Positions 18,122 to 42,806 are shown, counted from the stretch's first letter. The stretch: 64,000 nt of DNA from Chloroflexota bacterium (GCA_965221905.1 OZ244922.1:2048001-2112000); one strand, 5' to 3'. Made by a program: numbers and translations. The notes: generated by a model from the sequence alone, not told the origin.

Positions 18122-18248
18122 TTTGTAACCCACTAGACTCCCGATTTCTCTCACTCAGTATAAGCGGGGTCTGTGTGAATGGGCACTTTCTACCCGCAAG
18201 TATCTTACGTGCTTCTGGACAACAGTGGGTATAGTGCCGCGCCGCCAC

Positions 18249-25360: not shown

Positions 25361-25445
25361 CCGGACGCAGGTTGCAAACCTACGCTACCGGACGCAGGTT
25401 GCGGACCCGCGCTGCCGGACGCAGGTTGCAAACCTGCGCTACCGG
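25361..25445. repeat. Three 27-bp palindromic tandem repeats inside the RM gene
   Basis: CCGGACGCAGGTTGCAAACCTGCGCTA-like units at 25361, 25388 and 25415, read as SGSAGLQPA. Confidence 0.9.
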
Positions 25446-25466
25446 AAGATGCTGCGTCAGGAGAAG

Positions 25467-25495
25467 ATGGATTCCGGCTTTCGCCGGAATGACGG
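25467..25495. repeat. REP-like palindrome inside the RM gene
   Basis: TGGATTCCGGCTTTCGCCGGAATGACG hairpin, read as RHSGESRNP. Confidence 0.85.
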
Positions 25496-27932
25496 TCACT
25501 GGGTGCACGGGAATGAGCGATGTCATCCGTTGTTTGAGACTCAATTGCGTCGGGCCCGTGGGCCAGGAGCTTGAAGGCGTCGTTCGGCTGTCGGCCGAGG
25601 GTCTCGAACAACGAGGCCTCAAAGAGGGTGCGTTCCTGCTTCTTCATGCCCGCGGTCAGCCAGCGCAAGCCGCAGAGCACGTCGAGCACACTGCGGAGGT
25701 CGGCGGTGGTATTTTCCACTTCCCGGAACAGGGTCGCGGACTCCCGCACCTCGGCCACGTCGGCATCGGAGAGCAGTTCGATGTGCTCCATCCCCTCAGC
25801 GGCTGTCTCAGCGCCGGCAACGGCGGACTGCACAAACAAGCCGCCCATGCGATTCAGTTCGTCCACGGCCTCCTCCACGCGCAGGCCGAGCAGCGAGTCG
25901 CCGCAGCGCAGGTGGTGGTCCAGGAACGAAAGCGGCGCGCCCACGGTGAAACTATGCAGCCAAAGCGAGACTTTGGCCAGCTCCACGGCCAGGGGGTTCT
26001 TGTCCACGCCGTAGATGCAGCGCTTGAGCACCATGCGCCGGATGATGGCTTGGTCGGTGAGTTGCAGCTTGTCGATTGCCCAATCCGACTCACGCGCCCG
26101 CTGCAGAATTTCTTCCCGAATTACCGCAATGCGCTCCACCAGCGGCGAAACGTAGGCGCTACCGCAGCCGTCGTCCAGCCATTCCGGCACGGCAGGCACG
26201 TATTCGACCATGTGGGCGATCTCGTCGGAGAGATAGTCCACGGCGGTCACCAGGAAGTGGCCGCTGCCCATGGCCGGATCGAGAATCTTCAGGTCGAGCG
26301 CGGCCACCGCCGGGTCGAGCGCCTCCAATTCCTGGCGGCGCTCCGGCTTGGGGCGATGATCGCTTCTGAGCTCCTTTGCTCGAGTCTCAAACGCCTTGAG
26401 GCGCTCCTCCACCAAAGGTTCAAGAGTCTTTTCCACGATTAGGTCGACGAGTTCCTGGGGCGTGTAGAAACTGCCGCTGTCCTTGCGGGCGTAGGGGTTG
26501 GGCCGCATGATGATTTTGCCGTCATCGCCGCGCACCGGCTCCTGTTCCAGCAGGCGCTCGTAGATTGAGCCGAGCTGTTGCACCGACATGTCGCGATAGT
26601 TGACGAAAGAGCGGACGCTGTCGCCTTTGCGCGCACTGCGCGTATGGCTGAGGTCATAGATGATGCCGGCGATAACCGAATCCGGCAAGCGGACGTGCTG
26701 CAAAAGCGGCGCGGAGTCCGGGGCGAAGAGCCCGCCGTTGTAGGGAGGGAGGCCGATAGAAGGATCGCCGCGGTCGATAAGCCTGAACAGCGTGTTGAGG
26801 CGGTCGTAGTAGTTGGTTGCCGCGCTGGAGAAGGTATCGCCAGTCTGCATGCGCGCGGCAACGTCGTCGCGCACACGCTTGCGCAGGCCGTAATCCGTCA
26901 TAGCGCGAATCGTTGACCGGCAAGAGGCCGCGGTCCTCGGCGTAGAGAATGAAGAGGAGCCTATAGAGGAATATGAGAGCCGCGTGACGCACCGCCGTGA
27001 AGTCATCACTGGGATCGCCTTCTGCGGCATAGCGATCCGCAAGCGCTTCGACCAAGTGGGGGAATACGCGCGAAAACACAACTTCCGAGAGGTCTGCGGC
27101 CACCCGCTGCTCATAGCGCTTTCCTTCCGCGATCGCATCTTCCAGGAAGGTAGTCGCCGCGCCCTCTTGCGCTATGAATGATTCGCGCCTGAAGAGTAGG
27201 AAGATCGCGCGGAGGGCGTGGTCGTCGTCCTGCTGCAAAAGGGCTTTCAGGTCCGCTTCGTAAAAGCCGCTGGCACGGGGACGGGCGCGGAAATCGTAGA
27301 GCCGCCAGACTGCGCCGTTGGTCAAGATGCCCCAGCGGATGCGACCGTCGGTCACTTTATCTGCCGTGTCGAGATACCTGAGAATCTGGCCGTGAGGGGT
27401 GCCGCGGCGGGTGGTTTCACCGCTGTCGCGGTTGTCGAGCGGCAAGCCGAAGCGTTTGCTCTCCTCGATTACAAGGGCGTCTTGATAGCGATTTTCGGAA
27501 CCCTCGCGCGCTGCGGCCCTGTCCTTCGCCTCCCCATCGGCAAAGAGCAGGTAATCGGGAATGTCCTCTTGGCGGTCTGAGCCTTGCTGGGGCATATGGT
27601 TGTCCCAGCCTAGCAATTCCAGGAGCGGACGCACCACCTCGTTTTCAGTTTGTGCCTCGTTGGGTTCGTGAGCGGAGGAAATCTTATCCAGAATTTCGCG
27701 CAGGGATTGCTTGAACGCGGTAAATGTCAGCGGCTGCCGCACGCAATCCTGCCAGGCATCGGTTGCCTGGATGCCTTCGGTAAGGAAGTATTGTGTGAAG
27801 AGTTGACCGATCATGGCGATGATTTCAAACTCTCAGCGAGCATCGCGAGTAACAGATTGCAGAGCCGGCCCCAGGACTAGGACTGAGGCGTGGGTGAGTC
27901 TTTTGCTGGAGGCGAATGGCAACAAGCCTGAT

Positions 27933-28121
27933 CTATTGCTTTTGCAGCCATCCGCGGACGATCCAGAATAGGTTGGCGAGTGCGATGGCTATGGCGGCGA
28001 CCCAGAGGGCGGTGCCGAGAGTAGGATTTGCCGCCAAGCCGATGCCTTGTCCGAGAAAGAAGACGATGACCGCCACCACGAAGAGCACGATATGGGCGAT
28101 TTTCTTAAGCTTTTTCCGCAT
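27933..28121 (-). CDS. Small two-TM membrane protein (62 aa)
   Basis: Basic N-terminus, two hydrophobic helices, GGAG RBS. Confidence 0.6.
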   Translation of the reverse strand: MRKKLKKIAHIVLFVVAVIVFFLGQGIGLAANPTLGTALWVAAIAIALANLFWIVRGWLQKQ

Positions 28122-28259
28122 GGTTCCACTCCCATAGCGTAGGTGCGGGAAACGACGAATCGGACTCACCCAGATGTTAGCAACACCTCAATGGTACCAG
28201 AGGGTAGGGAACGCAACTGCGCGTAGACAAGCATCGAGCCGGGCATGGGCCGGGGCAGG

Positions 28260-29276
28260 TCACGCCAATTCGGCCTTCGTAGACGGGAGCAGGCGCATGC
28301 GCACGTCCACCTCCAGGATGCTGCTAACGAAACCGTTGAGAATGCCTTTGGAAGGGGGCACGTCTTGATAGTCGCGTCCCACAGCGATAGAAACGTGGTG
28401 GTCTCCGGCAAGGGTCTGGTTGGTGGGATCGAAACCAACCCAGCCGAGGCCGGGCAACCGGCACTCTACCCATGCGTGGGTGGCGCTCTGCGGCGTCTGC
28501 GACGACGTCTGCGTCTGCGACAAAGTCGGCGTCTGCGACAGAGTCTGAGTCTGTGACAAAGTCAGCGCGTGCTCACGGGATTCACCCGAAACGTGCACGT
28601 AGCCGGATACATAGCGGGACGGCACGCCCCAAGAGCGCGCAACAGCAATCATGACGTGGGCGTAGTCCTGGCAGACACCCCGCCCGGTCTCCAAGATGTG
28701 GTCGATGGGGGAGGCCACCGAGGTGCTGCCAGGAACGTAGTCGAAGACGTGATGCAGCTTCTCGGACAGCATTCCCACAGCCTGCAGAGGGTCGTCGGCC
28801 GGCTCGATGCCTTCACGCTGGATGAAGGAGGAGAGGGCGGGCGACGACTGCGCTAACGGGCTGTCATGGGTAAAGTCCCAAAGCGCAAAAGAGTGCTGCC
28901 AGGCTTGAATCTTGTCCCATGCGCCGGAATTCAAAGAGCCCGGTAGCTGGGCCGCAGGTCCGGTTTCAACCGAAGAGCGGGCCACAATCTCGAGCGACTC
29001 GTGCCGCTGATGCACGCTAAAGACGTGCCTTGTGTTGCCGTAGGGGTCTGTTGCTGTGCTTAGTGTGGAGAGCGGGTGCGTGGAAAGATCGAACTGCAGG
29101 AGTTGCTGTCTCACGCTTTCGCGCGGTCTTAAACACAGGGACATCACAGAGTACCACGCCGGTGAGGCATAGCGGTAGCGGGATACGTGCTCTATCTCAA
29201 AGCGGTTCGATCTGGCGATGCGACCACTAGATTCTGCACTGTGTTCGGAGCGGCTGGATAAACTCGAGTCGGCCAT
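28260..29276 (-). CDS. Transglutaminase-like family protein
   Basis: 'IEHVSRYRY' N-domain; catalytic Cys 'GVCQDYAH', His 'THAWVE', Asp 'GFDPTN'; 'GRDYQDVPP'. Confidence 0.92.
   Translation of the reverse strand: MADSSLSSRSEHSAESSGRIARSNRFEIEHVSRYRYASPAWYSVMSLCLRPRESVRQQLLQFDLSTHPLSTLSTATDPYGNTRHVFSVHQRHESLEIVARSSVETGPAAQLPGSLNSGAWDKIQAWQHSFALWDFTHDSPLAQSSPALSSFIQREGIEPADDPLQAVGMLSEKLHHVFDYVPGSTSVASPIDHILETGRGVCQDYAHVMIAVARSWGVPSRYVSGYVHVSGESREHALTLSQTQTLSQTPTLSQTQTSSQTPQSATHAWVECRLPGLGWVGFDPTNQTLAGDHHVSIAVGRDYQDVPPSKGILNGFVSSILEVDVRMRLLPSTKAELA
28491..28562. repeat. Four 18-bp in-frame tandem repeats (TLSQTQ-like)
   Basis: Units at 28491, 28509, 28527 and 28545. Confidence 0.85.
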
Positions 29277-29283
29277 GAGGTCA

Positions 29284-30249
29284 TTATACGGGAGAGTCTT
29301 CGACATGGTAGTCGAAGTAGGTCACCGCAATCAGGTCGTGAAGGTCCCGGCAAAAGGCGCCCATCTGTCGCAAAGCCTGTTCACGGTCTTCCAGGTCGGG
29401 CCAATCGTAGCGGATTAAGGACACGAGCCGACCCGCCAGCCGCCGCGTCGCGCCACTGGAATCCGCATTTGGCCCGGGTCCGATAGCGTCAAGTTGCTGT
29501 CCCACGATATCGAGCGAAAAACAGAGGGAGTCGGGGAGCAGCGGATCTGTCACGAGCAGATCCAAAACATGGTTAGGGTGAACCTCCACGCTGTAGCTGC
29601 GGTTATAGACCTCCAAGGCGTGGTATGCGCGCAGCAAGCTAACCCAGTCAGCTTCGGAAGACTCCTCAAAGTGCACTTCGGAGGCAAGTTGCGCCAATAG
29701 CAGCGAAATCGTGATCTGGGCCCGCTCGATCAAACGACCGAGTTGCAGGAAGTGCCAACCCTCGTCGCGGTACATTGTTGCTGCAGCCACACCCATGAAG
29801 GTGTCGATGTCTGCGGTCACCCCAGCGTAGAAACTCTCCGGAGACGTGGACCAAATATCTTGTATGTCCCGATTCTGGAGCTGAAGATAGACAAGGTTTA
29901 GGTGCGACCACATTTCCGCGCTAATGCAGTTTCGCGTTTGACGGGCATTCTCTCGCGCTGCGGCGAAGCAATTCCACAGCGAGCCAAGATTCGAAGGCTC
30001 AAACGTCAGGTCGTCGGCAAGGGTATACGAGTCCGCCAGCGTGAAGTCATCACTGTCGCTGAGTTCGAGACTGCCGCCAGGCGTCAACCGGTCGACACTT
30101 ATGTAAATGCGACTCCAGCCGAAGTAAATTTCCTGGACAGGGCGATCCACCAGAGCCGCCGTCTGCAATTGCAGAAAGCGGCTGAGGTGTTGCGCCCGTT
30201 CCAAGTAGCGCCCCATCCAGAAGAGGCTTTGTGCGCTTCGTGAGAGCAC
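29284..30249 (-). CDS. Alpha-E domain protein (DUF403)
   Basis: 'MLSRSAQSLFWMGRYLERA', 'ARENARQTR', 'LGRLIERA' ER motifs. Confidence 0.92.
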   Translation of the reverse strand: MLSRSAQSLFWMGRYLERAQHLSRFLQLQTAALVDRPVQEIYFGWSRIYISVDRLTPGGSLELSDSDDFTLADSYTLADDLTFEPSNLGSLWNCFAAARENARQTRNCISAEMWSHLNLVYLQLQNRDIQDIWSTSPESFYAGVTADIDTFMGVAAATMYRDEGWHFLQLGRLIERAQITISLLLAQLASEVHFEESSEADWVSLLRAYHALEVYNRSYSVEVHPNHVLDLLVTDPLLPDSLCFSLDIVGQQLDAIGPGPNADSSGATRRLAGRLVSLIRYDWPDLEDREQALRQMGAFCRDLHDLIAVTYFDYHVEDSPV

Positions 30250-30279
30250 GTGTGCTTAATTCCTTAGCTCAGGTAAACG

Positions 30280-31677
30280 CTAGTCCTCATCATGCTCTTC
30301 AGGCATCAGCACAAATTCGGGATAGGCCTCAAGGCCCAACTCGGCGGTGTCCTGACCCAGACGCTCAGCTTGCACCGAAACACGCAGGCCGAGGGTCAAT
30401 CCTATGACCTTCCAGAGGATCAGCGAAACGATGAAGACGAATGCGCCAACTGCTAGAACACCAATGAGCTGCACAACAATGTCGCCGCCTGCGACAATGG
30501 CAACCGCCAGCGTGCCCCAGATGCCTGCCATCAAGTGAGCGGGGATTGCGCCAACGACGTCATCGAGCTTGACTTTTTCAAGCAGTTTGAGACCTAGGGT
30601 GCAGATGATGCCGCCGATAGCGCCGATTATGACCGCCCAGTAGTGTTGAGTGATGTCGGGGCCGGCCGTAATCGAGACGAGTCCTGCAATGGCTCCGTTC
30701 AAGCCGGCGAAGAGGTCAGTGCGTCCGAGGAGCGGCCGCGAGATTATGAGGGCGGCCATAACACCGGCTGCTGCCGCGAGGTTGGTGTTTACCAAAATGT
30801 GGCCGATTGAAATCGCGTCGGCTGCGCTGCCCAGCGCCAACTGCGAGCCGCCGTTGAAACCAAACCAACCAAGCCACAGGATGAAGACGCCCAGAGTCAC
30901 CAACAAGACGTTCGAAGGCGACGTTAGCCTGACTGAACCATCCTTGCGGTACTTGCCAAGCCTGGGTCCGACGATAATCACACCCGCCAGGGCTGCCCAG
31001 CCACCTGTACTGTGCACGATGGTTGAACCGGCGAAATCCTGGAAACCCATTTCAGCCAGCCAGCCGCCGCCCCACGTCCAAGCGCCGACTACGGGGTAGA
31101 TGACGGCGGTTAGAATTATTATGAAGAGGAAGAACGACCACATCTTGACGCGCTCTGCCAGGGCGCCGGATATGATGGATGCCGTGGTCGCTACGAAGAC
31201 CATCTGGAAGAACCAGTCCGACATGACCGAGTAGCCGCTCTCGATTACGGCCGCCGCGGCGCCCTCGTTACCATCCAGCAATGCTAGTTCGTCAGATGAA
31301 GGCCCATAGAGCAGATTGAAAGAGCCGATCAAGCCCCATAGCCGGTCCCCACTCACGTCCACGTACATCAGGTTGTAGCCGACGAAGAAGTAGGCTAGAC
31401 CGGCGATAGAGTAGAGGCCGATATTCTTTAGGCAAATCATTGAGGCGTTCTTGGTGCGTACCGCGCCGGCTTCGAGCATGGTGAAGCCCGCTGCCATCCA
31501 CATCACCAGTACACCCCAAATGAGGAACGCGAAGGTATTTAGGACAAATGCAGTCTCGCCGTCGGTTGCTGCCTGGGCGACGGGCGGTCGGAACAAGAAA
31601 TAGAGAAACGTCAACAGCAGCACCGCCGCGATGACGGCAATACGCCGATGGCGTGCAAGTACGTCCGTGAATACCAT
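30280..31677 (-). CDS. amt: Ammonium transporter (Amt), intact, with signal peptide
   Basis: 'GFTMLEAG', 'FFQMVF', 'DFAGSTIVH', 'GWFGFNGGS', 'DDVVGAIPAH'; twin His and Phe gate present. Confidence 0.95.
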   Translation of the reverse strand: MVFTDVLARHRRIAVIAAVLLLTFLYFLFRPPVAQAATDGETAFVLNTFAFLIWGVLVMWMAAGFTMLEAGAVRTKNASMICLKNIGLYSIAGLAYFFVGYNLMYVDVSGDRLWGLIGSFNLLYGPSSDELALLDGNEGAAAAVIESGYSVMSDWFFQMVFVATTASIISGALAERVKMWSFFLFIIILTAVIYPVVGAWTWGGGWLAEMGFQDFAGSTIVHSTGGWAALAGVIIVGPRLGKYRKDGSVRLTSPSNVLLVTLGVFILWLGWFGFNGGSQLALGSAADAISIGHILVNTNLAAAAGVMAALIISRPLLGRTDLFAGLNGAIAGLVSITAGPDITQHYWAVIIGAIGGIICTLGLKLLEKVKLDDVVGAIPAHLMAGIWGTLAVAIVAGGDIVVQLIGVLAVGAFVFIVSLILWKVIGLTLGLRVSVQAERLGQDTAELGLEAYPEFVLMPEEHDED

Positions 31678-31706
31678 AAGCTCTCTCTCCTTTGAGACAC
31701 TAAGCA

Positions 31707-33170
31707 TCAATCATCATCAACCACCCAGAAGTCTTTGCCACCTCCCCCCTGACTAGAGTTGACTACCAAGCTACCGCGGCGCAGAGCGACGCGACAGAGT
31801 GCCCCAGGTACTATGCGGGTCTCGCGGCCGTGCAGCACGAACGGACGTATGTCCACGTGACGCGGCTCGAAGCGGCCGTCAATGAAGCACGGCGCGCGAG
31901 AGAGCGCGAGCACCGGCTGTGAGATGAACCCGGCTGGGTCCGCGCGCAATTGCTCGGCGTATTCCTCACGCTCCTTAGGGGATGCGTGGGGGCCGATAAG
32001 CATGCCGTAGCCACCGGATTCACCGACACGTTTTACCACTAAATTCTGTAAATTGTCAAGCGTAAACTCCAGATCTTCACGCCGCCTGCAGAGGTAAGTA
32101 GGTACGTTTGCAAGGATCGGCTCTTCATGTAAGTAGTAGCGGATCATGTCAGGCACGTAGGCATACATGCTCTTGTCATCCGCTACACCAGTACCCGGAG
32201 CATTCACCAGGGCAACATTGCCAAGCTTGTACGCATGGAGCAGGCCCGGTACCCCAAGCAGTGAATCCGGGCGAAATACAAGCGGGTCCAAGAAGTCATC
32301 GTCCACACGCCTGTACACCACGTCGACTCGCCGCAAGCCCGCGGTAGTGCGCATATAGACATAGCCATCGTTCACCAATAGGTCACGACCCTCCACGAGC
32401 TCCGCTCCGATCTCGCGGGCCAGGAAGATGTGTTCATAAAAGGCGGAGTTGTAGACGCCCGGGGTCAACAACACGATGGTGGGATTCGATTGTCCGCTCG
32501 TTGCGAGCTCTCGGAGCGTTGTCTGGAGCACTTGGCCGTAGTGTTCGATCTCCCGGACGCGAGACCTTCTATACAGACGGCGAAAGCTCTTCTTCACCGC
32601 CTCGCGATTTGCCAGCATGTAGGAGACGCCGGAGGGAACCCGCAGGTTGTCTTCAAGCACACAGAAGCCGTCGCTGGTCCGCACAATGTCGGAGCCGCAG
32701 ATAGCAACCCATGTGCCGTGGGGGGCAGAAAACCCGCGCATTTCGACCCGGTACTGGGGACATCCACGCACCATGTCTACGGGGATTACACCGTCATGGA
32801 CGATGCTCGGTTCGCCATAGAGATCCTTGCTTCTGGATCTTCCGTAGACGTCTTCCAAGAAGCTATTCAGCGCTTTTATTCGCTGCGTTAATCCCGCCTC
32901 GATTACTTGCCAATCTGAACCTGAAAGAACGCGAGGGAGAGAGTCGATCGGAATAATGCGCTCGTCGGCCTCATCGTCGCCGTAGACCGTAAACGTGATG
33001 CCTTCGTTGGAAAATGAGCGGGTAACCCGTTCCTGGATTGTCGCCAACTCTTCGGGTGAAAGCTGGCAAAGCAGTTCGTGAAGGTCTCGACTGTGTTCCC
33101 GGGGAGTGCCGTCCGACAAGAACATCTCGTCGTAGACGTCGGCATCAAGTTGATAGTCTTCAAAGTTCAC
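31707..33170 (-). CDS. Circularly permuted type 2 ATP-grasp protein (DUF404/407)
   Basis: 'YDEMF', 'GITFTVY', 'VLEDNLRVPSGVSY', 'YRRVDDDFLDP', 'GTGVADDK', 'VVNSSQGGGGKD'. Confidence 0.95.
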   Translation of the reverse strand: MNFEDYQLDADVYDEMFLSDGTPREHSRDLHELLCQLSPEELATIQERVTRSFSNEGITFTVYGDDEADERIIPIDSLPRVLSGSDWQVIEAGLTQRIKALNSFLEDVYGRSRSKDLYGEPSIVHDGVIPVDMVRGCPQYRVEMRGFSAPHGTWVAICGSDIVRTSDGFCVLEDNLRVPSGVSYMLANREAVKKSFRRLYRRSRVREIEHYGQVLQTTLRELATSGQSNPTIVLLTPGVYNSAFYEHIFLAREIGAELVEGRDLLVNDGYVYMRTTAGLRRVDVVYRRVDDDFLDPLVFRPDSLLGVPGLLHAYKLGNVALVNAPGTGVADDKSMYAYVPDMIRYYLHEEPILANVPTYLCRRREDLEFTLDNLQNLVVKRVGESGGYGMLIGPHASPKEREEYAEQLRADPAGFISQPVLALSRAPCFIDGRFEPRHVDIRPFVLHGRETRIVPGALCRVALRRGSLVVNSSQGGGGKDFWVVDDD

Positions 33171-33528
33171 GGCTCATCTCGCTTACCGGGTTTGAATGGC
33201 TCATTGCCAGTGTCATAGCACCATGTCAGTCGTGCACCACTAGCACTCCACATTCCATAGTCGAGCGTTCAGAAAACGTGTCGGCCTCGCCAGAACAGTA
33301 GCAAAACAAGCACACAATTTCAAGCCTTCGCAATTCTGCGTCAAGCTTGTGGAATATCTGGCTGATAGCAACTAAAATGCAAGTTCGCTCAAGCGCCATG
33401 TGTCAATACCAATTGCGCCCGGCATGGGAGCAACTTGGCGATAGACACCAACTAGCCCGGTGCTCGCGGGTAGAAGGAATCCAATTGGCCGATCAGCACA
33501 TTGCCCTGATTAGACCGCACTCCCAACG

Positions 33529-35694
33529 CTATGCTTGGACCGGCTCTTCATCGGCACCCTCTCCAATAACCACGGGCGCAAGAGGGATTTCGATTGTCAT
33601 TTCGGTAAATTCGCCGGGTTCGGATTCGACGCGGATAGTGCCGCCATGGCGCCGCACAATGTCGCTGGACATGGCAAGACCAAGGCCGGTGCCTTGGTCG
33701 GTAGGCTTTGTAGTAAAGAAGGGATTGAACATCTTCTCAACAACGTCCGGTGGCATGCCGGTGCCATTGTCTTTGATGCGGAATTCGGCAGACTCGTCAC
33801 CTCGCCGCGAAGAGAGCCAGACTGTGGGGCTATAGTCCGTGGCGCCATCCGTTTTCTCGATGGCACGCCTTCTCTCATCGGTAGCGTCGCAGGCGTTGCT
33901 TACCATATTCAAGAAGACGCGGCCCATGTCCTGCGGAATGACTTCGATCTCTCCCATATCCGGGTCGAGGTCTTGCTTCAAGTCAAGCTGGAAATCCGAA
34001 TCGGTAGCCCGCTTGCTGTGGTAAGCGAGGCGTGCGTGTTCATCCAGAAGGTTATTGACATTCGTGGGCTGCTGTCCGCCGGTGCCCCGGCCCATGGAGA
34101 GCATGTCATGCACAATGCGGTTAGCGCGTTCTCCGTGCGAATGAATGCGTTCGAGGTTGCCTGTGAGATCACCGGAAATCTCTGCGATGAGGTCGCGGTC
34201 CTCAGCGCTCAACTCGCCTCCGTTTTCACTGAGAACCTCTCGCAATTCTTCAAGCAGGTCTGCTGAAGACTCGGAGAAATTCTTGACGAAGTTTAACGGG
34301 TTCTTGATCTCGTGGGCCACACCTGCGGTGAGCTCACCGAGTGCAGCCAGCTTCTCGCGCATTACGATTTGGTCTTGCGCTCTTCTCAAGTCAACCAACA
34401 CGCTTTCAAGCTGTTCATTCTTTCCCTGTAACTCGTCTGCAAGCTTCTCAACCAGATTCAAGCGCTGCACTTCCAATGCGTGACGACGGAAGACTTCCAG
34501 AGCTGAAGCCATTTCCGCTACCTCGTCGCGGCCACCAATCTCGACCTGGGCCTCCAAGTCGCCACCGGCCATATCGCGCATCCAACTTGAAAGCATTTCA
34601 ATTCGGCGCACCACGACCCGGCCAACGAAGAGCCACACGATTACCAGGGCGCCGCCAATACTGATGATGCCGATGGCAAGCAGGAGAAGACGACCGGTTA
34701 AAATTGCCTGCGTGGACGCTTGGGTGGCTTCCTCTACACTGTCGGACGCTGCGCTTACCAGGCCTTCCACCTCGCCCAGGAGTTCGTTGGCCAGATCGTT
34801 GTTGCTTGCCAACAAAGAGTTCTGGTGCTCGACGAGCCGCAGTTGCCGGGCGCGTAATTCAAATACGCTCTTCAACTCCAACAATTCGTCGAAGATAGGG
34901 GCAAGTTCGGCATAGAATGGCGCGTCCAGAAGCGCAAAGAGACTCCGCTCAATCTGGCTCTGAGCGGACTCGAATCGCTCCCTTAAAGGCTCGACTGAAG
35001 CCGCATCTGAAACCACATAGGAGTTTGCCAAAAGCTCGGTGGCAATGTTAGCTTGCGTGCGCAAAATCTCTAAGTGGCGATACCGATTGAATTCTTCTTC
35101 AGAGAAGTGGTCTGCGCGCGGCGCTGCGGCTTCTCCGATGGCACGAAAACCTGTGATCAAGTAGAAGATCTGGTCGTCAATCTCGGGGACCAAGACTTCG
35201 TCCAGGCCGCTGCGCAGGTTTGTTAGTGCATCACGCAACTGCTCACTTTGCCTATTCAGTTCAAACGACTCGGACATCCCGGTTTCAACGGCGCCGATGT
35301 TAGAAATGAGGGCATCGGCGCGGGCACGAACGCGCGCAAATCGTTCATCCGCTGAATCGGCCTGCTCCAAGACAGCCAATTGCTCCTCAAGGGCGGCATG
35401 CGCTTCGTCGATACTGGCAGCTACGCGGTTGAAGTCCGCGGGCGACGCAGCGCTCGCGAGCCGTGGAGCAGCGGCCTCTAACGAGTTACTGTGCTGTGCC
35501 ACCCTAAAGGCGGCTACCATTTCCGGCACGCTTCCTTCGTTTACCTGGCTCTGGACTTCACCAACGCGATTGAACGAAAACCACCCCACGAGACTGGCCG
35601 CAATGACAAGCGTCACAGCGCCGCCAATGCCCAAATAGAGCTGCGTTGATATCCTGTAACGGCTTTCGAGCAAGCCCCGAAATTGTTCAATCAC
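33529..35694 (-). CDS. Sensor histidine kinase with TorS-like helical extracytoplasmic domain and HAMP
   Basis: TM - long helical domain - TM, HAMP 'GRDEVAEMASAL', 'AHEIKNPLNF', 'DNGTG', 'PFFTTK', 'GTGLGL'. Confidence 0.9.
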   Translation of the reverse strand: MIEQFRGLLESRYRISTQLYLGIGGAVTLVIAASLVGWFSFNRVGEVQSQVNEGSVPEMVAAFRVAQHSNSLEAAAPRLASAASPADFNRVAASIDEAHAALEEQLAVLEQADSADERFARVRARADALISNIGAVETGMSESFELNRQSEQLRDALTNLRSGLDEVLVPEIDDQIFYLITGFRAIGEAAAPRADHFSEEEFNRYRHLEILRTQANIATELLANSYVVSDAASVEPLRERFESAQSQIERSLFALLDAPFYAELAPIFDELLELKSVFELRARQLRLVEHQNSLLASNNDLANELLGEVEGLVSAASDSVEEATQASTQAILTGRLLLLAIGIISIGGALVIVWLFVGRVVVRRIEMLSSWMRDMAGGDLEAQVEIGGRDEVAEMASALEVFRRHALEVQRLNLVEKLADELQGKNEQLESVLVDLRRAQDQIVMREKLAALGELTAGVAHEIKNPLNFVKNFSESSADLLEELREVLSENGGELSAEDRDLIAEISGDLTGNLERIHSHGERANRIVHDMLSMGRGTGGQQPTNVNNLLDEHARLAYHSKRATDSDFQLDLKQDLDPDMGEIEVIPQDMGRVFLNMVSNACDATDERRRAIEKTDGATDYSPTVWLSSRRGDESAEFRIKDNGTGMPPDVVEKMFNPFFTTKPTDQGTGLGLAMSSDIVRRHGGTIRVESEPGEFTEMTIEIPLAPVVIGEGADEEPVQA

Positions 35695-36965
35695 TGTTCT
35701 ATATCTCGTAGTGAACTCACAGGCTGGTACGTGCCGTCCGGGCCGATCATAGTAAGGAATACTGAATCTGATCCCTGGTTGTCGTCCGAACCATAGTTAA
35801 GTTCAAATTCGCTTAAGTCGATCACCCCAGTATTTCGTATGCTATCGAGAAAGCACTCTCGCGTGAGCTGCGGGCCGCACCGCTCAAGCCCGGCGATTGC
35901 CAGGCGCCCGGCAAGGTAGCCCTCTAGTGAAACAAAGCTGGGATCATGCCACGAAGACAATTCGCGAATGGCGCGAAGGTAGTCCTTGACGATTTGTTTG
36001 GAGTCGTCTGTTGGGAACGGAACCACCTGTGTCACGAACACTCCTACTCCCGCAGGGCCAAGTTCTTCCGCCAAGGCGTTGCTGCCGACAAAGGAAACGT
36101 TCATGAAAACCGGGTCCAGACCAATGTGCCGTGCCCAAAGGATAAGGGCGGCAACCGGCTTGTATGCGCCAATCATAATCACCGCTTCGGGATTACCGCG
36201 ACGGAGATCGAGCAAGGCCGCCTTTACAGCAGTGGTGTTGCGCGTATAGACGCCAATTGACACCATTTCCATGTTTCGCTTATCTAGGGCCAACCGCACC
36301 CCGTTGAAGCCGGCGCGACCGTAAGAATCGTCCTGATACAACACACCGATACGCGTGACGCCCAAGTCGATGGTCAGTCTTTCGACCATTTCTTCGGTCT
36401 CTTGATAATAAGAGGCGCGCATATTCACTACATTGAAAAGGTCTGAATTGCGCAGGAATTCGGCGCCGGTGAAGGGGGCAATGTAGGGGACACCCGCTTC
36501 ATAAGCAACCGGCACCGCAGAGCGGGACGTCGGCGTGCCAACGGCTCCGATGAGGGCGAATACATCGTGCTCTTCTATGAGCATTCTGGTGTTGGCAATA
36601 GCGGCTTCCGGTTCGTAGGCATCATCAGATATGAGCAAAACAAGCTCCCGCCCATGGACGCCGCCCTTCTGGTTGACTTCATGGAAAGCGGCCCTAATGC
36701 CGAATTCCATGTTAGTACCAAGCTCTACAGCGGGGCCGCTGAAGGCTGCGGATTGGCCAAAGAGAATCTGGTCGTCGGTGACGCCGGGAGCAGCAGACTG
36801 GGAAGCATCGGCTGCGGTCACTGGCGTTGCTGTTGCAACTACTGACTCGCCATCTTGGGCAGGTGTGGAGCAACCCACGAGAATAGCGGCAACGACAAAC
36901 CCACCAATGACCCTCACCATTGCATTGAATAGTGGGACCGTCGGCAGGCGGTGGGCCCTCTTCAT
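35691..36965 (-). CDS. Type I periplasmic-binding-fold lipoprotein (LivJ-like), no cognate permease nearby
   Basis: 'ILVGCS' lipobox, 'GQSAAFSGP', 'DDAYEP', 'GAVGTPT', 'NMRASY', 'YQDDSYG'. Confidence 0.88.
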   Translation of the reverse strand: MKRAHRLPTVPLFNAMVRVIGGFVVAAILVGCSTPAQDGESVVATATPVTAADASQSAAPGVTDDQILFGQSAAFSGPAVELGTNMEFGIRAAFHEVNQKGGVHGRELVLLISDDAYEPEAAIANTRMLIEEHDVFALIGAVGTPTSRSAVPVAYEAGVPYIAPFTGAEFLRNSDLFNVVNMRASYYQETEEMVERLTIDLGVTRIGVLYQDDSYGRAGFNGVRLALDKRNMEMVSIGVYTRNTTAVKAALLDLRRGNPEAVIMIGAYKPVAALILWARHIGLDPVFMNVSFVGSNALAEELGPAGVGVFVTQVVPFPTDDSKQIVKDYLRAIRELSSWHDPSFVSLEGYLAGRLAIAGLERCGPQLTRECFLDSIRNTGVIDLSEFELNYGSDDNQGSDSVFLTMIGPDGTYQPVSSLRDIEQ

Positions 36966-37381
36966 TTGGCTATACTCGCAACCATTGTTAGATGATTCTT
37001 GCCCTGTTCCCGTCGATAGCGCACGTCATCCATTATTTTGCGCACAAGATGGATGCCTAAACCGCCTATGCTTCTATCCTCTAGCTCACCGGTCACATTG
37101 GGTTTAGGAGCGTCATGCAACGGATCAAAGGGCCGACCGTCATCAACGATCTCTATCGTGAGGGCGTTCTCATCAGAAAATAGTGATATTTCAATTTCAT
37201 GCAGACCATCGTCATGACCGTAATTCATGACGTTGATTACTACCTCTTCTAAGGCCAAGTTCACCTTGAATACGAGATCCAAAGGCCAATCCGCTTGCAG
37301 GCCGAAGTCCTCTATGGCTGTCGAGACCCGGTCTAACTCATCTTGTTTGGTCTCGACCTTTAGGTGCAATTCTGTACCCAC
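36962..37381 (-). CDS. RsbW/SpoIIAB-like anti-sigma factor Ser kinase
   Basis: 'LALEEVVINVMNYG', 'DDGRPFDP', 'GGLGIHLV'; GTG start at 37381 coupled to the upstream stop. Confidence 0.9.
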   Translation of the reverse strand: MGTELHLKVETKQDELDRVSTAIEDFGLQADWPLDLVFKVNLALEEVVINVMNYGHDDGLHEIEISLFSDENALTIEIVDDGRPFDPLHDAPKPNVTGELEDRSIGGLGIHLVRKIMDDVRYRREQGKNHLTMVASIAK

Positions 37382-37382
37382 T

Positions 37383-38543
37383 TCAAGACTCGCTACGGTA
37401 AATGGCCAAGCAGGTGATATCGTCAGATTGAGGTGTATCGCCGGCAAAGTCGCTTACAGCTTGGAAGACCGCTTCGTTTGCTTCTTTGGGGTCTCGAGGA
37501 GGATTGGTCGCGAACACTTCCTGCAAGCGTTCTACCCCAAACTCCTCTTCTTGGGCATTCATGGCCTCGGTGACACCGTCCGTGTAGAGGAATGCGAGAT
37601 CGCCGGGAGCCAAGCTTATCGATTGCTGCTGATAGGGCATATCCGGCACCACTCCAAGCGCGATGCCTCCTGTTAGTGGAAGCAGAGATGAGCTCCCGTC
37701 GGGATGCACAATGAGAGGACTGTTATGTCCTCCGTTGGCGTAAGTGAATTCACCGGTTGACGAACTATACACCGCATACAGAATCGTGACGAACATTCCT
37801 GTGTCATTGTCTTCATGGAGCAGATCGTTAACCTCACCCAGAACTTGACCGGGCTCTCCCATGCCAATGGCAGAGCCTTTCAAGAGAGTGCGGCTAGACA
37901 TCATAAAGAGAGCGGCCGGAACGCCCTTGTCGGAGACGTCCGCAATAGCAACGCCGACAAGGCCGGCATCCAAAGTCAATACGTCGAAGAAGTCTCCACC
38001 GACGTTGCGGGCCGGCTCCATGCTGGCGTAAATCTCAAAGTCAGTACCTCGGGGGAAGTCAGTGGGGAGGATTGATTGTTGGATTTGACTGGCAACGTTC
38101 AGCTCGTTCTGCAACGCGACAAGCTTATCGCGCGACGAGAGCGCCTCACGCCACTCAGTCATATGACTCAGAGTGCGATCGATAGTGATTTGGAGGTCCG
38201 CAAAGTCCAGCGGCTTGGTGACGAAGTCGAAAGCGCCTCGATTCATCGCCGTCCGGATATTCTTCATATCCCCGTAAGCTGAGACGATTACGGAGCGAAT
38301 GTTGGGATCAACTTTGGGAATCTGCTCAAGCAGTGTCAAGCCGTCCATGCGCGGCATATTGATATCGGACAGTACCATATCAATTTCATTATCTTCATTG
38401 AGGCGTTCCAGCGCTTCTATGCCATTCTGAGCAAATACAAATGTATACCGCCCTGCTCTAATGTGGCGCCGCATCCGCTGCAACATGAGCGGCTCGAGAT
38501 CCGGTTCATCGTCGACAACGAGGATCTTATAGGGTGGTTCCAT
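37383..38543 (-). CDS. Response regulator fused to a SpoIIE/PP2C phosphatase (RsbU/RsbY-like)
   Basis: REC 'VVDDE..LSDINMP..TKP'; PP2C 'VGGDFFD', 'ADVSDKG', 'YTDGVTEA', 'SDDIT'. Confidence 0.93.
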   Translation of the reverse strand: MEPPYKILVVDDEPDLEPLMLQRMRRHIRAGRYTFVFAQNGIEALERLNEDNEIDMVLSDINMPRMDGLTLLEQIPKVDPNIRSVIVSAYGDMKNIRTAMNRGAFDFVTKPLDFADLQITIDRTLSHMTEWREALSSRDKLVALQNELNVASQIQQSILPTDFPRGTDFEIYASMEPARNVGGDFFDVLTLDAGLVGVAIADVSDKGVPAALFMMSSRTLLKGSAIGMGEPGQVLGEVNDLLHEDNDTGMFVTILYAVYSSSTGEFTYANGGHNSPLIVHPDGSSSLLPLTGGIALGVVPDMPYQQQSISLAPGDLAFLYTDGVTEAMNAQEEEFGVERLQEVFATNPPRDPKEANEAVFQAVSDFAGDTPQSDDITCLAIYRSES

Positions 38544-38636
38544 CGTTTCCTTTCCACAAGAACTACATTAGCAAGCCCAATAGGTCCTTCCTATTAGCTG
38601 GCCAGAGTTCTCAACACTGCGAAAGAATGGGGTGAG

Positions 38637-38975
38637 CTAGTTCTTGAGTGCGTCTATTGCCTCATCTCGAGAGTCGTGAACTGCAATGATCTGATCGAAA
38701 CCGCTAATCTCGAAGATTTCGCGGATTGACTCAGAAAGAGAGCATACAGCGAATCTGGCATCCTGCTTTTGGAGAGACTTGGCGGTTAATAGGATGACCC
38801 GCAGCCCAGCACTACTTATATAAGAAACTTCCTCCAAATCCAAGACAACGGCTCGCTCGCTCGCGTCTATCGCAGCATCTAATGCATCCTGGAATTCACG
38901 GGCATTAGCACCATCAATGCGACCGTCCGTCTTTGCGATTAAGGTATTGTCCTGCCGCTCGGTGGTAACTCCCAT
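38637..38975 (-). CDS. STAS anti-anti-sigma factor (RsbV/SpoIIAA-like)
   Basis: 'GRIDG', 'VLDLEEVSYISSAGLRVIL' with the phosphorylatable Ser. Confidence 0.93.
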   Translation of the reverse strand: MGVTTERQDNTLIAKTDGRIDGANAREFQDALDAAIDASERAVVLDLEEVSYISSAGLRVILLTAKSLQKQDARFAVCSLSESIREIFEISGFDQIIAVHDSRDEAIDALKN

Positions 38976-39196
38976 TGGGCACTTCTCCTAAGTGTTGCTA
39001 TTCGGCTCTTGGCTGATCGCAATGCGTGAACGACAACCGCCGGTTTCGAAACCGGCTTTGCGTTTCACCTCACAGGCATTCCCTCCACTGGATGTAATGC
39101 AATCGGCTCGTTTTCTACCGATAGTACAAGCGTCTCCTGATCCTAGGAAATACTATACCATTTCCGATTATAGGGGTATGGCAAAGAATGCAAATG

Positions 39197-39517
39197 CTAC
39201 TTTGCAGACTCCCCGGTCTCCGCAGGCATAACCTCAGATATCCAAACCCGTGAATATCGGGACGGATCGGATGCGCTAGCACGACGAATGGCAGCAGTGG
39301 CTTGCTCGACTATGCCATCTTCTACTATCGCCTCGATCTTCACCATGGGCAGGAAGTCAATCTTGTATTCGACACCACGCAGAATCTCCGAATGGCTCAC
39401 CTCTTCTCTGAAGCCTTTGATGTCGATTGCGCTGACACTCGTGACCCCAAGCTTCACTAGGGCTTCATATACAATGCTTACCCTATCCGGTTGAACCCGT
39501 GCCACGACTAGTTTCAT
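39197..39517 (-). CDS. PII-family nitrogen regulator, degenerate GlnK-like
   Basis: 'MKLVVARVQP', 'KGF', 'RGVEYKIDFLPMVKIE'; directly downstream of amtB. Confidence 0.8.
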   Translation of the reverse strand: MKLVVARVQPDRVSIVYEALVKLGVTSVSAIDIKGFREEVSHSEILRGVEYKIDFLPMVKIEAIVEDGIVEQATAAIRRASASDPSRYSRVWISEVMPAETGESAK

Positions 39518-39538
39518 TGTCTGTGTCCTTATGCTTCT

Positions 39539-40756
39539 CTAAATGTCATAGCCACGCTCGCCGTGAAAGGCGAGGTCGAGTCCTTGCTCCTCGTCTTGGG
39601 CAGAAACTCGTATCCCACCAGTAAGCATACCTGTAACTTTCACGATAATGAAAGTGAGGACAGCCGCCCATGCTATGACTACAACCACGCCAAGTGCCTG
39701 CACGCCTAGTTGTGCAATAATCGTGCCGCTGGCAACCAAGAGACCGCCACCGCCAAACGCAGCGACCGCTTAGACTGATACCAGCAGCGTGCCGAGTATG
39801 CCCCCCACGCCGTGCACTGCAAAGACGTCAAGCGAGTCGTCGATCTTCAATCTTTCTTTAACTATACCAACTGCGAAGAAACACACTAAACCCGCAAGCG
39901 CGCCCAGGATCACGCCGCCAATCGGTCCAACGAACCCAGAAGCGGGAGTGACTGTTGCTAGGCCCGCAATCGCGCCCGTGACGGCGCCTACCAGAGAAGG
40001 CTTACCCAGCTTGATCCACTCGATTGCCGACCACACGATCACAGCGCTAGCGGCTGCAAGATGGGTCGCGGTGATAGCCATGCCTGCGCCGCCATCAGCC
40101 ATCAGTTGGCTGCCCCCGTTGAATCCGAACCAGCCCACCCAGAGCATCGCGGCTCCCGCTGCGGTCATGCCGGGATTGTGCGGAGGTTGGAGTTGGTCGG
40201 GAAAACCGATCCGTCTGCCGAGTAGAGCGGCGATGACCAAGGCCGATATACCGGCGGTCGTATGAACCACCAGGCCGCCTGCAAAGTCCATTACGCCAAG
40301 CTCGCCCAGCCAACCACCACCCCAAACCCAATGACAAACCGGCGCATAAACGAGGATGAGCCAAGCACTGCTCAGGATTAGCATCGAAGAGAATTTGATG
40401 CGCTCCACATAGGCGCCCACGATTAGCGCCGGAGTAATGATGGCGAAAGTCATCTGAAAGATTGCGAATACGATTGCCGGGATCGAGCCCCTCATCATAT
40501 CCGCTGCCATACCAGCGAAGAAGACTCTATTAAAGCCGCCGACAATGCCGCCTAGGCTGTCGCCAAAAGACAGGCTGTAGCCCACAACCAACCAAAGTAT
40601 GCTGACCACAGCGGCAATGGAAAAACAGTGCATCATCACGGACAGTACCGACCTGGAACGCACCAAGCCCGCGTAGAACATTGCCAAACCCGGCAGTGTC
40701 ATGAACAAGACGAGAGCAGTAGACATTAGAATCCATGCAGTGTCGCCGGAGTTCAT
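39539..40756 (-). pseudogene. amtB: AmtB-type ammonium transporter with in-frame TAA at 39770-39772
   Basis: 'SGDTAWIL', 'FQMTFA', 'DFAGGLVVH', 'GWFGFN', 'DDSLDVFAVHG'; frame continues past TAA to 'EEQGLDLAFHGERGY'. Confidence 0.9.
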
Positions 40757-41633
40757 GTGATTCTCCCTTGGGACATTTTACCGTTGGGGTAGAATGGTTG
40801 AAAGAGGTCGACCATACAAAATTTGGATGCTGAGAACATCGAGACAAGCAACCAAATAAACGCGACACTACCCTACCAACTACGGCTGCGTCTGTCAAGA
40901 ATAGCTTCGAGAAAGGGAGCGCGCTGCTAGACCTAATTCGGCACTCTCACGTTGCGATTGTTCTGAAGTCAACGAACGCCCTAGGTCAAGCGTCAGTAAG
41001 CCAGCATGGGTGCAGTCATTCGAGGGACCTATGCCCCAATGCTTCCCACGATCTTGCTCTCCTCTAACGATCTGTAGACGACCTAGCGCTGTGCGCGCTA
41101 AGCTACCACGCTGCAGAGCTTTGGGGTGGGTTTTGGGCACAAAGTGGAGACAATGAGTCTGAGGCGCACCGGGCCCAGAGCAGTTTGGAAGATAGTGAGG
41201 GCGGACCTCCCACAGTATGACCTCTAGCGCGTACTAGCGCTTGACACGAGGGCGGAATTAGCCGGAGGTGCTCGTAACTTTGTCAGCCCGGCAGTTTACG
41301 CCCGGCGTAGTGGGAGGGACTAGCTATGTGGACCGCTAGGAAGTCCAACAATGGGACATAGGGGTGCTTTCGAGGGGGATCGCTCTGCCCGGATACAGGC
41401 TTGAATTGAATGGGCTCTTGGCGCCGGCAGGCAGAATTAGACCAGCCATCTCAAATTTCTAGGAAGTCTCTTGTAGAGTTAACTCGCTGTGCGTTCTTCA
41501 CGCACCCAGTGGCGATATCGGCAAGGGGAGCGACATTTGCACTGATACAAAAATGCGCACAGTGCTCCCTGTCCTCTCTCGAAGGAACAGTTCTCATCTG
41601 CTGCGAGCATCTCCAACTTTGACCAAACTGGGA

Positions 41634-42485
41634 CTAGCGCGGCGACCGCTGGCATTCTGCCATGTACATATTGGTTTCTTCGTTGAGCAGCGGGTGATTC
41701 AGGGCCTCGTTGCCACTATCGTATACATGAGAGGGCGGGACTCGATAATCCATGAAAGCATGGCACAACCGACCCCAACTCCCGTCGATATCTCCTTCAA
41801 CGTAGAATCCGTGCCAGGGCGCATCAGAAATAGGGTTAGAGGAGGAAGGCTCTGGAGTGGGAGTGGGGTCGAGAGCAGACCCCACTCGGATATCAGCCTG
41901 TCTGGATTGTTGAGATTGGGACGTAGTCCCGGGCGGCCGCTCAGGTCCAAGGCCGCAATTGTGCTCATACACCCAACGTGCCGCGGCGTGCGACCCCCAG
42001 GTACTCACGAAAAGGTCCTGCACGTGAGCAGGCTGATCGGTAAGTATCGTTCCGTCCCGCGCCTCCAGCGCGCCGGTGTACTCTGTGTATGGGCACTGGT
42101 CGGAAATAGAAGGAGTCTGCGGCGCATAGCCAGAACCAAGCGTGCAGTTGTGCTCGAATACCCAACGCGCAGCCGCGTCCTCTCCCCAAGTATTCGCGAA
42201 GAGTTCTCGCACGTCGGCGGTCTGATCGGATAGCCGCTTGCCGTCTCGGGCCACGATTGCACCCGTGTAGGCTGCTGGTGTACAATAATCTACCGGCGAG
42301 GCAAAGGCAGTGTTTATGTGCCAGGTACCGGCGGCTACCACTGCCAATAGCCCGATCGAGAACGCGACGACGATAGCAAAGCCGGATGGGCCGGTGACCG
42401 ATCGCCGCACGCTACGCAGCCAGTGCGAAAAACACACTGTTAGTGCTAGGGTCACGTACACTTTGTTCACGTGCAGCCTCCTCAT
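41634..42485 (-). CDS. Hypothetical secreted protein with two Cys-bounded 42-aa repeats; start uncertain
   Basis: Hydrophobic signal ending 'AFA'; repeats at 42144-42269 and 41955-42080. Confidence 0.7.
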   Translation of the reverse strand: MRRLHVNKVYVTLALTVCFSHWLRSVRRSVTGPSGFAIVVAFSIGLLAVVAAGTWHINTAFASPVDYCTPAAYTGAIVARDGKRLSDQTADVRELFANTWGEDAAARWVFEHNCTLGSGYAPQTPSISDQCPYTEYTGALEARDGTILTDQPAHVQDLFVSTWGSHAAARWVYEHNCGLGPERPPGTTSQSQQSRQADIRVGSALDPTPTPEPSSSNPISDAPWHGFYVEGDIDGSWGRLCHAFMDYRVPPSHVYDSGNEALNHPLLNEETNMYMAECQRSPR

Positions 42486-42806
42486 TCGCTATTTAGAGCT
42501 ACGATTGCCGTAGTGGGGAATCCAGCAAGAAAATTGGATGAATCGTCAGCAGACGGTGTATGGGGGAAGGGCGAATCGGTCCGATTACAGAATGGAAATA
42601 GAAAAGTAGGCAGAATACCAGTTAAGCGTGAAGATGCTTACGGTCATAAAGGGAAAGAAATCGTCAAAGAATGGCACCGAGGATGGCACCACAAAGAAAA
42701 CACTGATCTGGATTGGAATTTCTAAAGGGAGATCCTATAATGCCAGACAACGAAAAATAAGTCAAATTTGGTCTTGCAATCTCGTCTAATTCGTGGGAAT
42801 ACTCAT

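Follow-up and report, generated by a model that had tools for sequence, protein, structure and literature searches.

Three adjacent units in a Chloroflexota genome, ammonium channels, a partner-switch cassette, and an amidoligase trio, as a candidate nitrogen-control circuit

Do two ammonium channels, a PII-like protein, a partner-switch signaling cascade, and a set of amidoligase genes that lie in one row on a bacterial chromosome form a nitrogen-control circuit, or are they neighbors without a common task? The row in question occupies positions 28260 to 40756, on the minus strand, of a 64,000-nt window (the whole stretch of DNA that was analyzed) from a Chloroflexota bacterium (GCA_965221905.1 OZ244922.1:2048001-2112000), whose genome is a single contig of 3.52 Mb. 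Genes were called by open reading frame (ORF) listing and Pfam searches on the window, and this recovered all eleven consecutive minus-strand genes, with their domains, that a first-pass annotation of the sequence had proposed. In the order of transcription, they encode an AmtB-type channel (amt1), a PII-like protein (here PII*), a STAS protein, a receiver domain fused to a PP2C phosphatase (REC-PP2C), an RsbW-like kinase, a binding lipoprotein, a histidine kinase (HK), a circularly permuted ATP-grasp protein (CP-ATP-grasp), a second channel (Amt2), an Alpha-E protein, and a transglutaminase-like protein (TGase).

The genes fall into three adjacent units. The first is made of amt1 and PII*, the second is a five-gene signaling cassette running from STAS to the kinase, and the third comprises CP-ATP-grasp, Amt2, Alpha-E, and TGase. 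We lean towards reading this composite as having a single theme, the supply of nitrogen in the form of ammonium. On balance, we also consider it probable that the sensor cassette governs the ammonium channels, the enzyme trio of the third unit (CP-ATP-grasp, Alpha-E, and TGase), or both. The functional coupling of the units is well supported by the comparative evidence, and unproven.

Recurrence of the three units

The proteins of the window were compared by tblastn with regions of 20 kb from 20 related genomes. All 10 genomes of the same genus have the nine genes from STAS to TGase as one block (identities of 58-99%), and Amt2 keeps its place between the ATP-grasp and Alpha-E genes in these 10 genomes and in 4/4 genomes of family f5, where ATP-grasp-Amt2-Alpha-E-TGase is kept with no cassette adjoining. 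All three blocks recur in another family, where one genome (G077) shows the order Amt1-PII*-STAS-REC/PP2C-RsbW-binding protein-HK-CP-ATP-grasp-Alpha-E-TGase. Other genomes hold parts of it: Amt1-PII*-cassette (G020), Amt2-STAS-cassette (G029), an Amt gene 2 kb upstream of the trio (G037), a decayed ATP-grasp gene beside a STAS gene (G021), or the trio without an Amt gene (G025 and G027). Across the families of the class, relatives of CP-ATP-grasp are 70-99% identical.

At the level of the class, a full-length REC-PP2C ortholog (at least 57% identity) is found in 70 of 98 genomes. In at least 30 of these 70, an Amt gene lies within 10 kb on the same contig, across six of the eight ortholog-bearing genera; this is a lower bound, as 30 further Amt matches are outside the count, and the related genomes are not independent samples. 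The linkage holds in 16/16 genomes of genus g1, in the single genome of g12 (1/1), and in 10/11 of g8 (one via a truncated copy), and it is found in 1/4 genomes of g15, 1/9 of g5, and 0/1 of g6. At G033:C10:75834-77495 and like places in g8 and g10, we also observed REC-PP2C genes with a stand-alone receiver gene in front of them; in g8 this REC-PP2C is a second copy, 65-67% identical, and in g10 it is the only copy. The receiver gene shares about 70% identity with the receiver of the query.

A scan for REC-PP2C with one genome per species returned at least 593 relatives, of which the best 80 loci (70-89% identical) were analyzed. By their record titles, they come from Chloroflexota/Dehalococcoidia, Acidobacteriota, Latescibacterota, and Acidimicrobiia metagenome-assembled genomes. 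According to tblastn, 77 of the 80 loci have all five cassette genes, 35 have an Amt gene within 10 kb on either side, and 26 have an ATP-grasp gene of more than 50% identity, which is downstream on the same strand in 24. An amt1-type gene lies upstream on the same strand in 13 loci, and PII* is present in 4. Clustering of the surrounding ORFs placed five non-core families in more than 9 of the 80 loci: Amt (30), CP-ATP-grasp (22), Alpha-E (21), transglutaminase (17), and DUF502 (15); the remaining neighbors are scattered housekeeping genes. The DUF502 membrane-protein gene is convergent and directly follows the kinase gene in 15 of the 80 loci (e.g., L076:14994-15713). Since a genome of about 3.5 Mb holds about two Amt genes, we estimate that a random 20-kb window would contain one by chance in about 1% of cases. 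Given that all 10 genus genomes keep the nine-gene block and that the neighborhood recurs across phyla, the arrangement of the locus is more than chance.

The spacing of the genes adds to this picture. The REC-PP2C/RsbW, RsbW/binding protein, and binding protein/HK junctions have a median overlap of 4 bp. The gap from the HK gene to the ATP-grasp gene is at most 18 bp in 8 of 15 measured cases, the gaps of 300-354 bp being those of the window's genus, and one Amt gene starts 7 bp after the kinase gene. Loci L067, L068, and L073 have the same blocks as the window (Amt1-PII*, cassette, and trio). In L091 and L095, the ATP-grasp/Amt2 operon begins with a second STAS copy; L079 has a single STAS match, which stands at the head of an Amt2/Alpha-E pair. 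The first-pass annotation had called for a gene-neighborhood search and had held that its proposal would fall if the three blocks never co-occurred in other genomes; they do co-occur, in G077 and in L067, L068, and L073, and that objection fails because all three recur in another family. In this part, the first-pass interpretation is supported.

Within the genus of the window, the units may nevertheless be separate in transcription. The first-pass annotation had given the right sizes for two gaps, one of 358 bp between kinase and ATP-grasp genes (33171-33528) and one of 221 bp between PII* and STAS genes (38976-39196), and its caution that each might hold a separate promoter was well placed, as conserved promoter-like elements occur in both. 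In the first gap, a putative promoter, TTGAAA-17-TACTGT (33323-33295), is conserved in 9 of 11 aligned genus genomes and is missing from G011 and G010, in which the gap is reduced to about 156 and 72 bp, respectively. In the second, putative elements span 39150 to 39194: the promoter scan gave TTTGCA-16-TATAAT at 39194-39167, upstream of STAS, and a TGGTATAGT-type box at 39161-39150 is found in at least 9 of the 11 genomes regardless of the upstream gene, its TA and GT being invariant in 11/11. The overall totals of the promoter and terminator scans were not above those of shuffled sequence (7 versus 7.5 and 15 versus 13), and our reading relies only on the elements that the alignments show to be conserved. 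A permissive Rfam search of positions 27500-42000 found no known riboswitch or leader, its one match being below threshold (D12-methyl, E value of 0.047) and inside the Alpha-E coding region. Nor was a structured leader seen in the consensus fold of the sequence upstream of STAS (11 genus genomes; -0.4 kcal/mol, 8 pairs).

Contigs from RNA libraries of two studies, which differ by 1-5% from the window and hence come from close relatives, and which may contain DNA, cover the locus and cross the PII*/STAS gap four times (X2, 36545-39744; X3, 37272-39674; X5, 37560-40407; X1, 38764-40757). Such contigs also bridge the ATP-grasp/Amt2 and Amt2/Alpha-E junctions, and two of them run from the ATP-grasp gene into the upstream gap, to 33280 and 33351. 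Two genes on one contig need not share a transcript. Among the contigs listed, cover is slight or absent over the kinase gene and over most of the gap between it and the ATP-grasp gene; neither this nor runs X6-X12, which have only small shares, served as evidence.

The most serious alternative, possible though in our opinion doubtful, is that the three units are independent. The cassette would then be a mobile, general solute sensor with its target elsewhere, and the blocks would have been co-transferred among bacteria that share a habitat. Several observations favor this and weigh against a nitrogen circuit. A quick maximum-likelihood tree built from 73 REC-PP2C sequences does not separate the phyla but mixes them, and relatives from different phyla are 70-77% identical; the mixing points to transfer between phyla. 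Whole blocks may travel together by transfer and inflate the synteny counts, in which related genomes are in any case non-independent samples. In 41 of the 80 loci, neither an Amt nor an ATP-grasp gene lies within 10 kb, and ORF clustering found no further nitrogen gene recurring near the cassette in these loci. In G026, about 294 kb separate the cassette from the trio. An Amt gene is within 10 kb in only 1/21 genomes of genus g10 (14 more have it at about 30-39 kb) and in 0/7 of g4, which has a canonical PII, and amt1-PII* adjoins the cassette in only 3/10 same-genus genomes by tblastn. Moreover, with a conserved promoter-like element for each, the units of this genus could be regulated separately.

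Independence fits less well with the way in which the linkage keeps reappearing. At least four different arrangements recur, the Amt gene being upstream on the same strand, divergent, after the kinase gene, or inside the trio, and the tree requires at least 15 changes between linked and unlinked states, 8 of them forced by well-supported branches. The short HK-to-ATP-grasp gaps and the STAS genes at the head of ATP-grasp/Amt2 operons argue in the same direction, as does the fact that, besides Amt and the trio, only DUF502 recurs beside the cassette. A circuit in which the cassette acts on the channels or the trio remains the reading that we favor.

The signaling cassette and its output

If the cassette governs its neighbors, what would it sense, and through what would it act? 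Its first gene (38637-38975; all features of the locus are on the minus strand) encodes a 112-aa STAS-only protein of the anti-sigma-antagonist type (Pfam STAS, 82.1 bits), which passes the antagonist superfamily model TIGR00377 (87.4 bits, cut-off of 53.45). Its YISSAGLR motif is invariant in 32/32 aligned relatives, and, by analogy with SpoIIAA and RsbV, its serine (Ser54/55) would be the phosphorylation site. REC-PP2C (37383-38543, 386 aa) combines a receiver (Response_reg, 84.2 bits) with a SpoIIE/PP2C phosphatase (SpoIIE, 181.5 bits), and inspection of the sequence showed the PP2C motifs GDFFD, DVSDKG, TDGVTE, and DDIT as well as the receiver motifs. The RsbW-like GHKL serine kinase (36962-37381, in an ORF reaching to 37447) matches HATPase_c_2 at 94 bits (cut-off of 27.4) and, by inspection of the sequence, has the N, G1, and G2-like motifs. 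Its start is most likely GTG 37381, one base after the PP2C stop, which gives a protein of 139 aa, because the lengths of the relatives and the sequence fit this choice.

The other two proteins would form the sensor. The binding protein (35691-36965, 424 aa) is of the LivK family (Peripla_BP_6, 174.9 bits); its best solved relative is 4kv7 (E value of 7e-69), and the nearest solved proteins are LivK-type. It had been annotated as a lipoprotein, which agrees with the LVGC lipobox at residues 29-32. Its gene overlaps the kinase gene by 4 bp, which is also the median of 67 loci. The membrane histidine kinase (33529-35694) has the Pfam architecture TorS_sensor, HAMP, HisKA, and HATPase_c. The TorS-like sensor PF21689 scores 35.7 bits (cut-off of 27), and residues 5-429 align to the TorS model TIGR02956 with 179.7 bits, below its cut-off of 676.5. 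Between two hydrophobic segments (about 18-41 and 329-365) lie some 285 periplasmic residues, which match TorS. Neither a receiver nor an HPt domain was found in the kinase with Pfam and TIGR02956.

These domains suggest the following course of events, for which we infer the class of the ligand, the direction of the phosphorylation steps, the target, and the chemistry of the trio. The lipoprotein would bind an extracellular compound, most likely an amino acid, an amide, or another nitrogen compound, and would report it to the TorS-like kinase in the manner of TorT-TorS; its role as a co-sensor is suggested by the TorS-like sensor of the kinase and by the translational coupling of the two genes, which is seen in most loci. 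The domain set further implies that the kinase would phosphorylate the receiver of the PP2C phosphatase and change its activity, and that the phosphatase and the opposing RsbW-like kinase would set the phosphorylation of STAS at Ser54/55. Free STAS or free RsbW would then have a non-sigma target; as neighbors, the channels and the enzyme trio are the prime candidates. Such control would likely be post-translational, so that ammonium uptake and the ATP-dependent formation or breakdown of amides would follow an external nitrogen signal.

The proposal of a non-sigma target rests on the inventory of the host genome. Only one SpoIIE-type PP2C, one stand-alone STAS, and one small RsbW-like protein were found, that is, a single partner switch. 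Sigma70_r2 has one match, in a 464-aa frame, and the search with this family found no SigB/F-type sigma factor in the genome. Because there is one partner switch and no such sigma factor was found, the output of the switch is probably not a sigma factor.

The classical anti-sigma route would be the alternative here: RsbW would hold a divergent or the primary sigma factor, and dephosphorylated STAS would free it to transcribe the ATP-grasp/Amt2 operon and other genes. The RsbW-like protein matches the anti-sigma F and B equivalog models weakly, STAS passes the antagonist superfamily model, and the closest kinase-fed switches are said to end on a sigma factor (RsfSR on SigF and RsbK/RsbY on SigB). 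The ATP-grasp operon also has its own conserved promoter-like element in this genus. In addition, two proteins have a Sigma70_r4_2 region 4 and no recognizable region 2 (L134, 222 aa; L135, 573 aa); they could be divergent sigma factors and possible RsbW targets, a further point that goes against the non-sigma output that we favor. The other Sigma70_r4_2 matches belong to a PAS-LuxR regulator, a peptidase M78 protein, and a receiver-GerE regulator, the last being inside the window. We nonetheless regard this route as unlikely. The matches to the equivalog models reach only 37-39 bits, with cut-offs of 135-155, the single Sigma70_r2 match leaves no SigB/F-like protein found in the genome, and ORF clustering found no sigma gene recurring beside the cassette in the 80 loci. 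Furthermore, the conserved element upstream of the ATP-grasp gene resembles an ordinary -35/-10 promoter.

Finally, that the juxtaposition is due to chance, with no shared biology, is very improbable: co-orientation of neighbors is common in compact genomes and the promoter and terminator scans as a whole do not exceed shuffled sequence, but the block is in 10/10 genus genomes, the neighborhood recurs in 39/80 loci against an estimate of about 1%, and both the HK/ATP-grasp spacing and the G077 locus contradict it.

The candidate targets: channels, PII*, and trio

The two channels of the locus are the sole two Amt matches found in the host genome. The amt1 gene (39539-40756) fits TIGR00836/AmtB (364.1 bits) and reaches only 167.2 bits against TIGR03644. 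An in-frame TAA lies at 39770-39772: the part up to this stop (39770-40756; Pfam Ammonium_transp, 322.9 bits over the first 328 aa) covers profile positions 1-323 of 399, and the same frame continues to a normal Amt C-terminus at 39539, so that the genome-wide profile match covers positions 1-399 with one TAA inside. In the three closest relatives (G005, G004, and G003), this codon is TTA (Leu). The first-pass annotation had marked amt1 as altered, and the gene is indeed interrupted in this sequence; the cause is neither truncation nor a frameshift, both of which are ruled out by a single nonsense codon (TTA to TAA) with the frame intact beyond it. The TAA is either a recent single-base knock-out or a consensus error. 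Amt2 (30280-31710; Ammonium_transp, 335.7 bits) is of a different type, passing TIGR03644, the "probable ammonium transporter, marine subtype" model, with 527.6 bits (cut-off of 514); its translation probably starts a few codons into the ORF.

PII* (39197-39517, 106 aa; Pfam P-II, 37.5 bits) starts 21 nt beyond amt1. It aligns without gaps to GlnB chains of the PDB (E value of 8e-20), and this alignment shows that Arg47 and Tyr51 of the T-loop are retained and that G37, R38, Q39, K58 (now Met), G87, D88, G89, K90, R101, and R103 are replaced. In PII proteins, the replaced positions are the residues that bind ATP/ADP and 2-oxoglutarate. "Degenerate," the term given to this protein at first, is thus right for the effector sites and wrong for the T-loop. 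The same residue pattern is present in the homologues of L067, L068, L073, G020, and G077, with Met in place of K58 throughout, and because these are just 44-52% identical, PII* is a maintained subfamily and not a product of decay. With its T-loop, PII* could still make contact with the channel, while ATP, ADP, and 2-oxoglutarate would no longer be read.

A search of the host genome for PII matched only PII*, so no canonical PII was found; among 41 relatives, a PII of about 100 bits occurs only in genus g4. Glutamine synthetase is present in the host. In several members of the window's genus, the only other PII-like gene is part of a row encoding a DUF1538 membrane protein, a PII-like protein (40.4 bits), and a CBS-pair protein (L139:4727-6531 in G001), with no Amt adjoining. 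This second PII-like protein belongs to the DUF1538-PII-CBS trio and is unrelated to the locus. Upstream of amt1, about 2.4 kb (40757-43213) separate it from an FMO-like gene, and the ORFs there have no Pfam matches. The distance from the FMO-like gene to STAS is much shorter in genus members without amt1-PII*, and therefore the pair and this stretch are either an insertion here or a deletion in the others.

In some genomes, the STAS gene occupies the position of glnK after amt. A bolder form of the circuit would be that, in PII-less bacteria, the cassette replaces GlnK as the post-translational governor of ammonium channels, and that the same switch controls an Amt-fed trio that traps ammonium and recycles amides at the expense of ATP; we regard this as improbable. 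Prediction of a complex of Amt2 (residues 40-476) and STAS gave it no support, with scores of 0.02 and 0.05 against a mark of 0.32, and without controls these scores have no bearing on binding either way.

The CP-ATP-grasp amidoligase (31707-33170, 487 aa; CP_ATPgrasp_1/2, with 509.6 bits for CP_ATPgrasp_2) is the sole match found in the host genome. It is followed, after Amt2, by the Alpha-E protein (29284-30249, 321 aa; Alpha-E, 234.8 bits) and the transglutaminase-like cysteine enzyme (28260-29306, 348 aa; Transglut_core, 78.8 bits; Bact_transglu_N, 74.1 bits), in which inspection of the sequence identified the candidate catalytic residues Cys212, His267, and Asp283. In the sequence between this Cys and this His is a low-complexity run of TLSQTQ-like units (about 28490-28562, minus strand; residues about 249-272). 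The three enzyme genes form one co-oriented row in the order of the Anbu operon, kept in relatives with or without an inserted Amt. At the end of the operon, where the Anbu system has its proteasome-like gene, an ORF overlapping the 3' end of the TGase gene (28166-28438) has no Pfam match.

The trio was described as a system by Iyer et al. (2009) and Valas and Bourne (2008), as cited in PMC6376114. By the account given there, it is highly expressed under nitrogen starvation, and the published hypotheses on its role lacked experimental confirmation as of 2017-18. The text of PMC5491218 reports the trio cluster of Burkholderia cenocepacia as NtrC/sigma-54-dependent, and that of PMC3597751 reports that the trio co-varies with urea-metabolism domains in marine metagenomes.

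Beyond the locus, the window holds a few other features of note. On the minus strand at 23548-27814, an MmeI/Eco57I-type restriction-modification gene is split into two ORFs in different frames that overlap by about 485 bp (26654-27814, with the MmeI_N and helicase-spacer parts, and 23548-27138, with the Eco57I/N6_Mtase parts); it may be a single gene with a frameshift. Next to it and to a TPR/FRG protein is a stretch where a Fic/DOC-family gene and a Fic_N fragment (17075-18154 and 20920-21366, minus strand) lie on both sides of an MMPL-family transporter gene. This region downstream of the locus looks like a variable, defense-type one. On the plus strand, an 868-aa ORF (51292-53898) without a Pfam match at an E value of 1e-5 or lower sits where, in the composition profile, GC skew (-0.27) and AT skew (-0.165) are stronger than anywhere else in the window.

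Relation to known systems

The first-pass annotation knew of no described system that joins all three blocks, and a literature search found none: of the papers listed, none links a partner switch to ammonium transporters, or the trio to an Amt. To what was known, the window adds an amt1-PII* pair directly upstream of the cassette and a PII* that represents a predicted effector-blind subfamily. It also adds a genome where neither a canonical PII nor a SigB/F-type sigma factor was found, and putative separate promoters in this genus in contrast to fused operons elsewhere. The cassette would be a sigma-less partner switch in a genome where no canonical PII and no second protein with a sigma-70 region 2 were found, which bears on the control of ammonium uptake in PII-less bacteria. 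The trio is widespread and induced by nitrogen starvation, and the built-in Amt together with the adjoining sensor cascade would narrow its candidate substrates to ammonium and amide chemistry. Two orphan systems, the trio and the cassette, thereby gain a testable context, and since the cassette reaches across four phyla or more with identities of at least 70%, a single experimental system would be informative for many uncultured lineages.

Each unit resembles a known system and departs from it. The third unit has the three families of the "Anbu operon" system in the same order; it differs in the Amt between ATP-grasp and Alpha-E, in the signaling cassette directly upstream, and in that no Anbu gene is present at this locus, a genome search for the proteasome family not having been made. 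The first unit has the layout of the amtB-glnK pair, an AmtB-type gene followed 21 nt on by a PII-family gene with the T-loop Arg47 and Tyr51 kept. Unlike in that pair, the ATP/ADP and 2-oxoglutarate residues of PII* are replaced, amt1 has a stop codon in this strain, and STAS directly follows Amt in related loci with no PII gene between them.

In the sensor, the likeness is to TorT-TorS: the sensor part of the kinase matches TorS, and the binding-protein gene is translationally coupled to the kinase gene. However, the binding protein here is of the LivK family (Peripla_BP_6) and not of the TorT type, and the kinase is not a hybrid, scoring 179.7 against the TorS cut-off of 676.5.

Partner switches, such as HptB-HsbR-HsbA of Pseudomonas aeruginosa, reportedly act in some cases on non-sigma partners. 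That system shares with the cassette a receiver-PP2C and a STAS whose phosphorylation selects the partner, and some of the partners are not sigma factors; it differs in that HsbR fuses phosphatase and kinase, which are separate genes here, and in its input, neighbors, and presumed target. In Bacillus cereus, RsbK-RsbY-RsbV-RsbW-SigB is said to be a kinase-fed switch ending on SigB, with the same order of steps as the cassette, from kinase to receiver-PP2C to STAS, with RsbW opposing. The same course is found in RsfS/RsfR-RsfB-RsbW1-SigF of Mycobacterium smegmatis, a direct precedent for these steps, where, according to the account in PMC10950880, phosphorylation of the receiver lowers the phosphatase activity. 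In contrast with both, the cassette described here has a LivK-type lipoprotein dedicated to a kinase with a TorS-like periplasmic sensor, neither its locus nor its genome yielded a SigB/F-type sigma factor, and its recurring neighbors are ammonium channels and the amidoligase trio.

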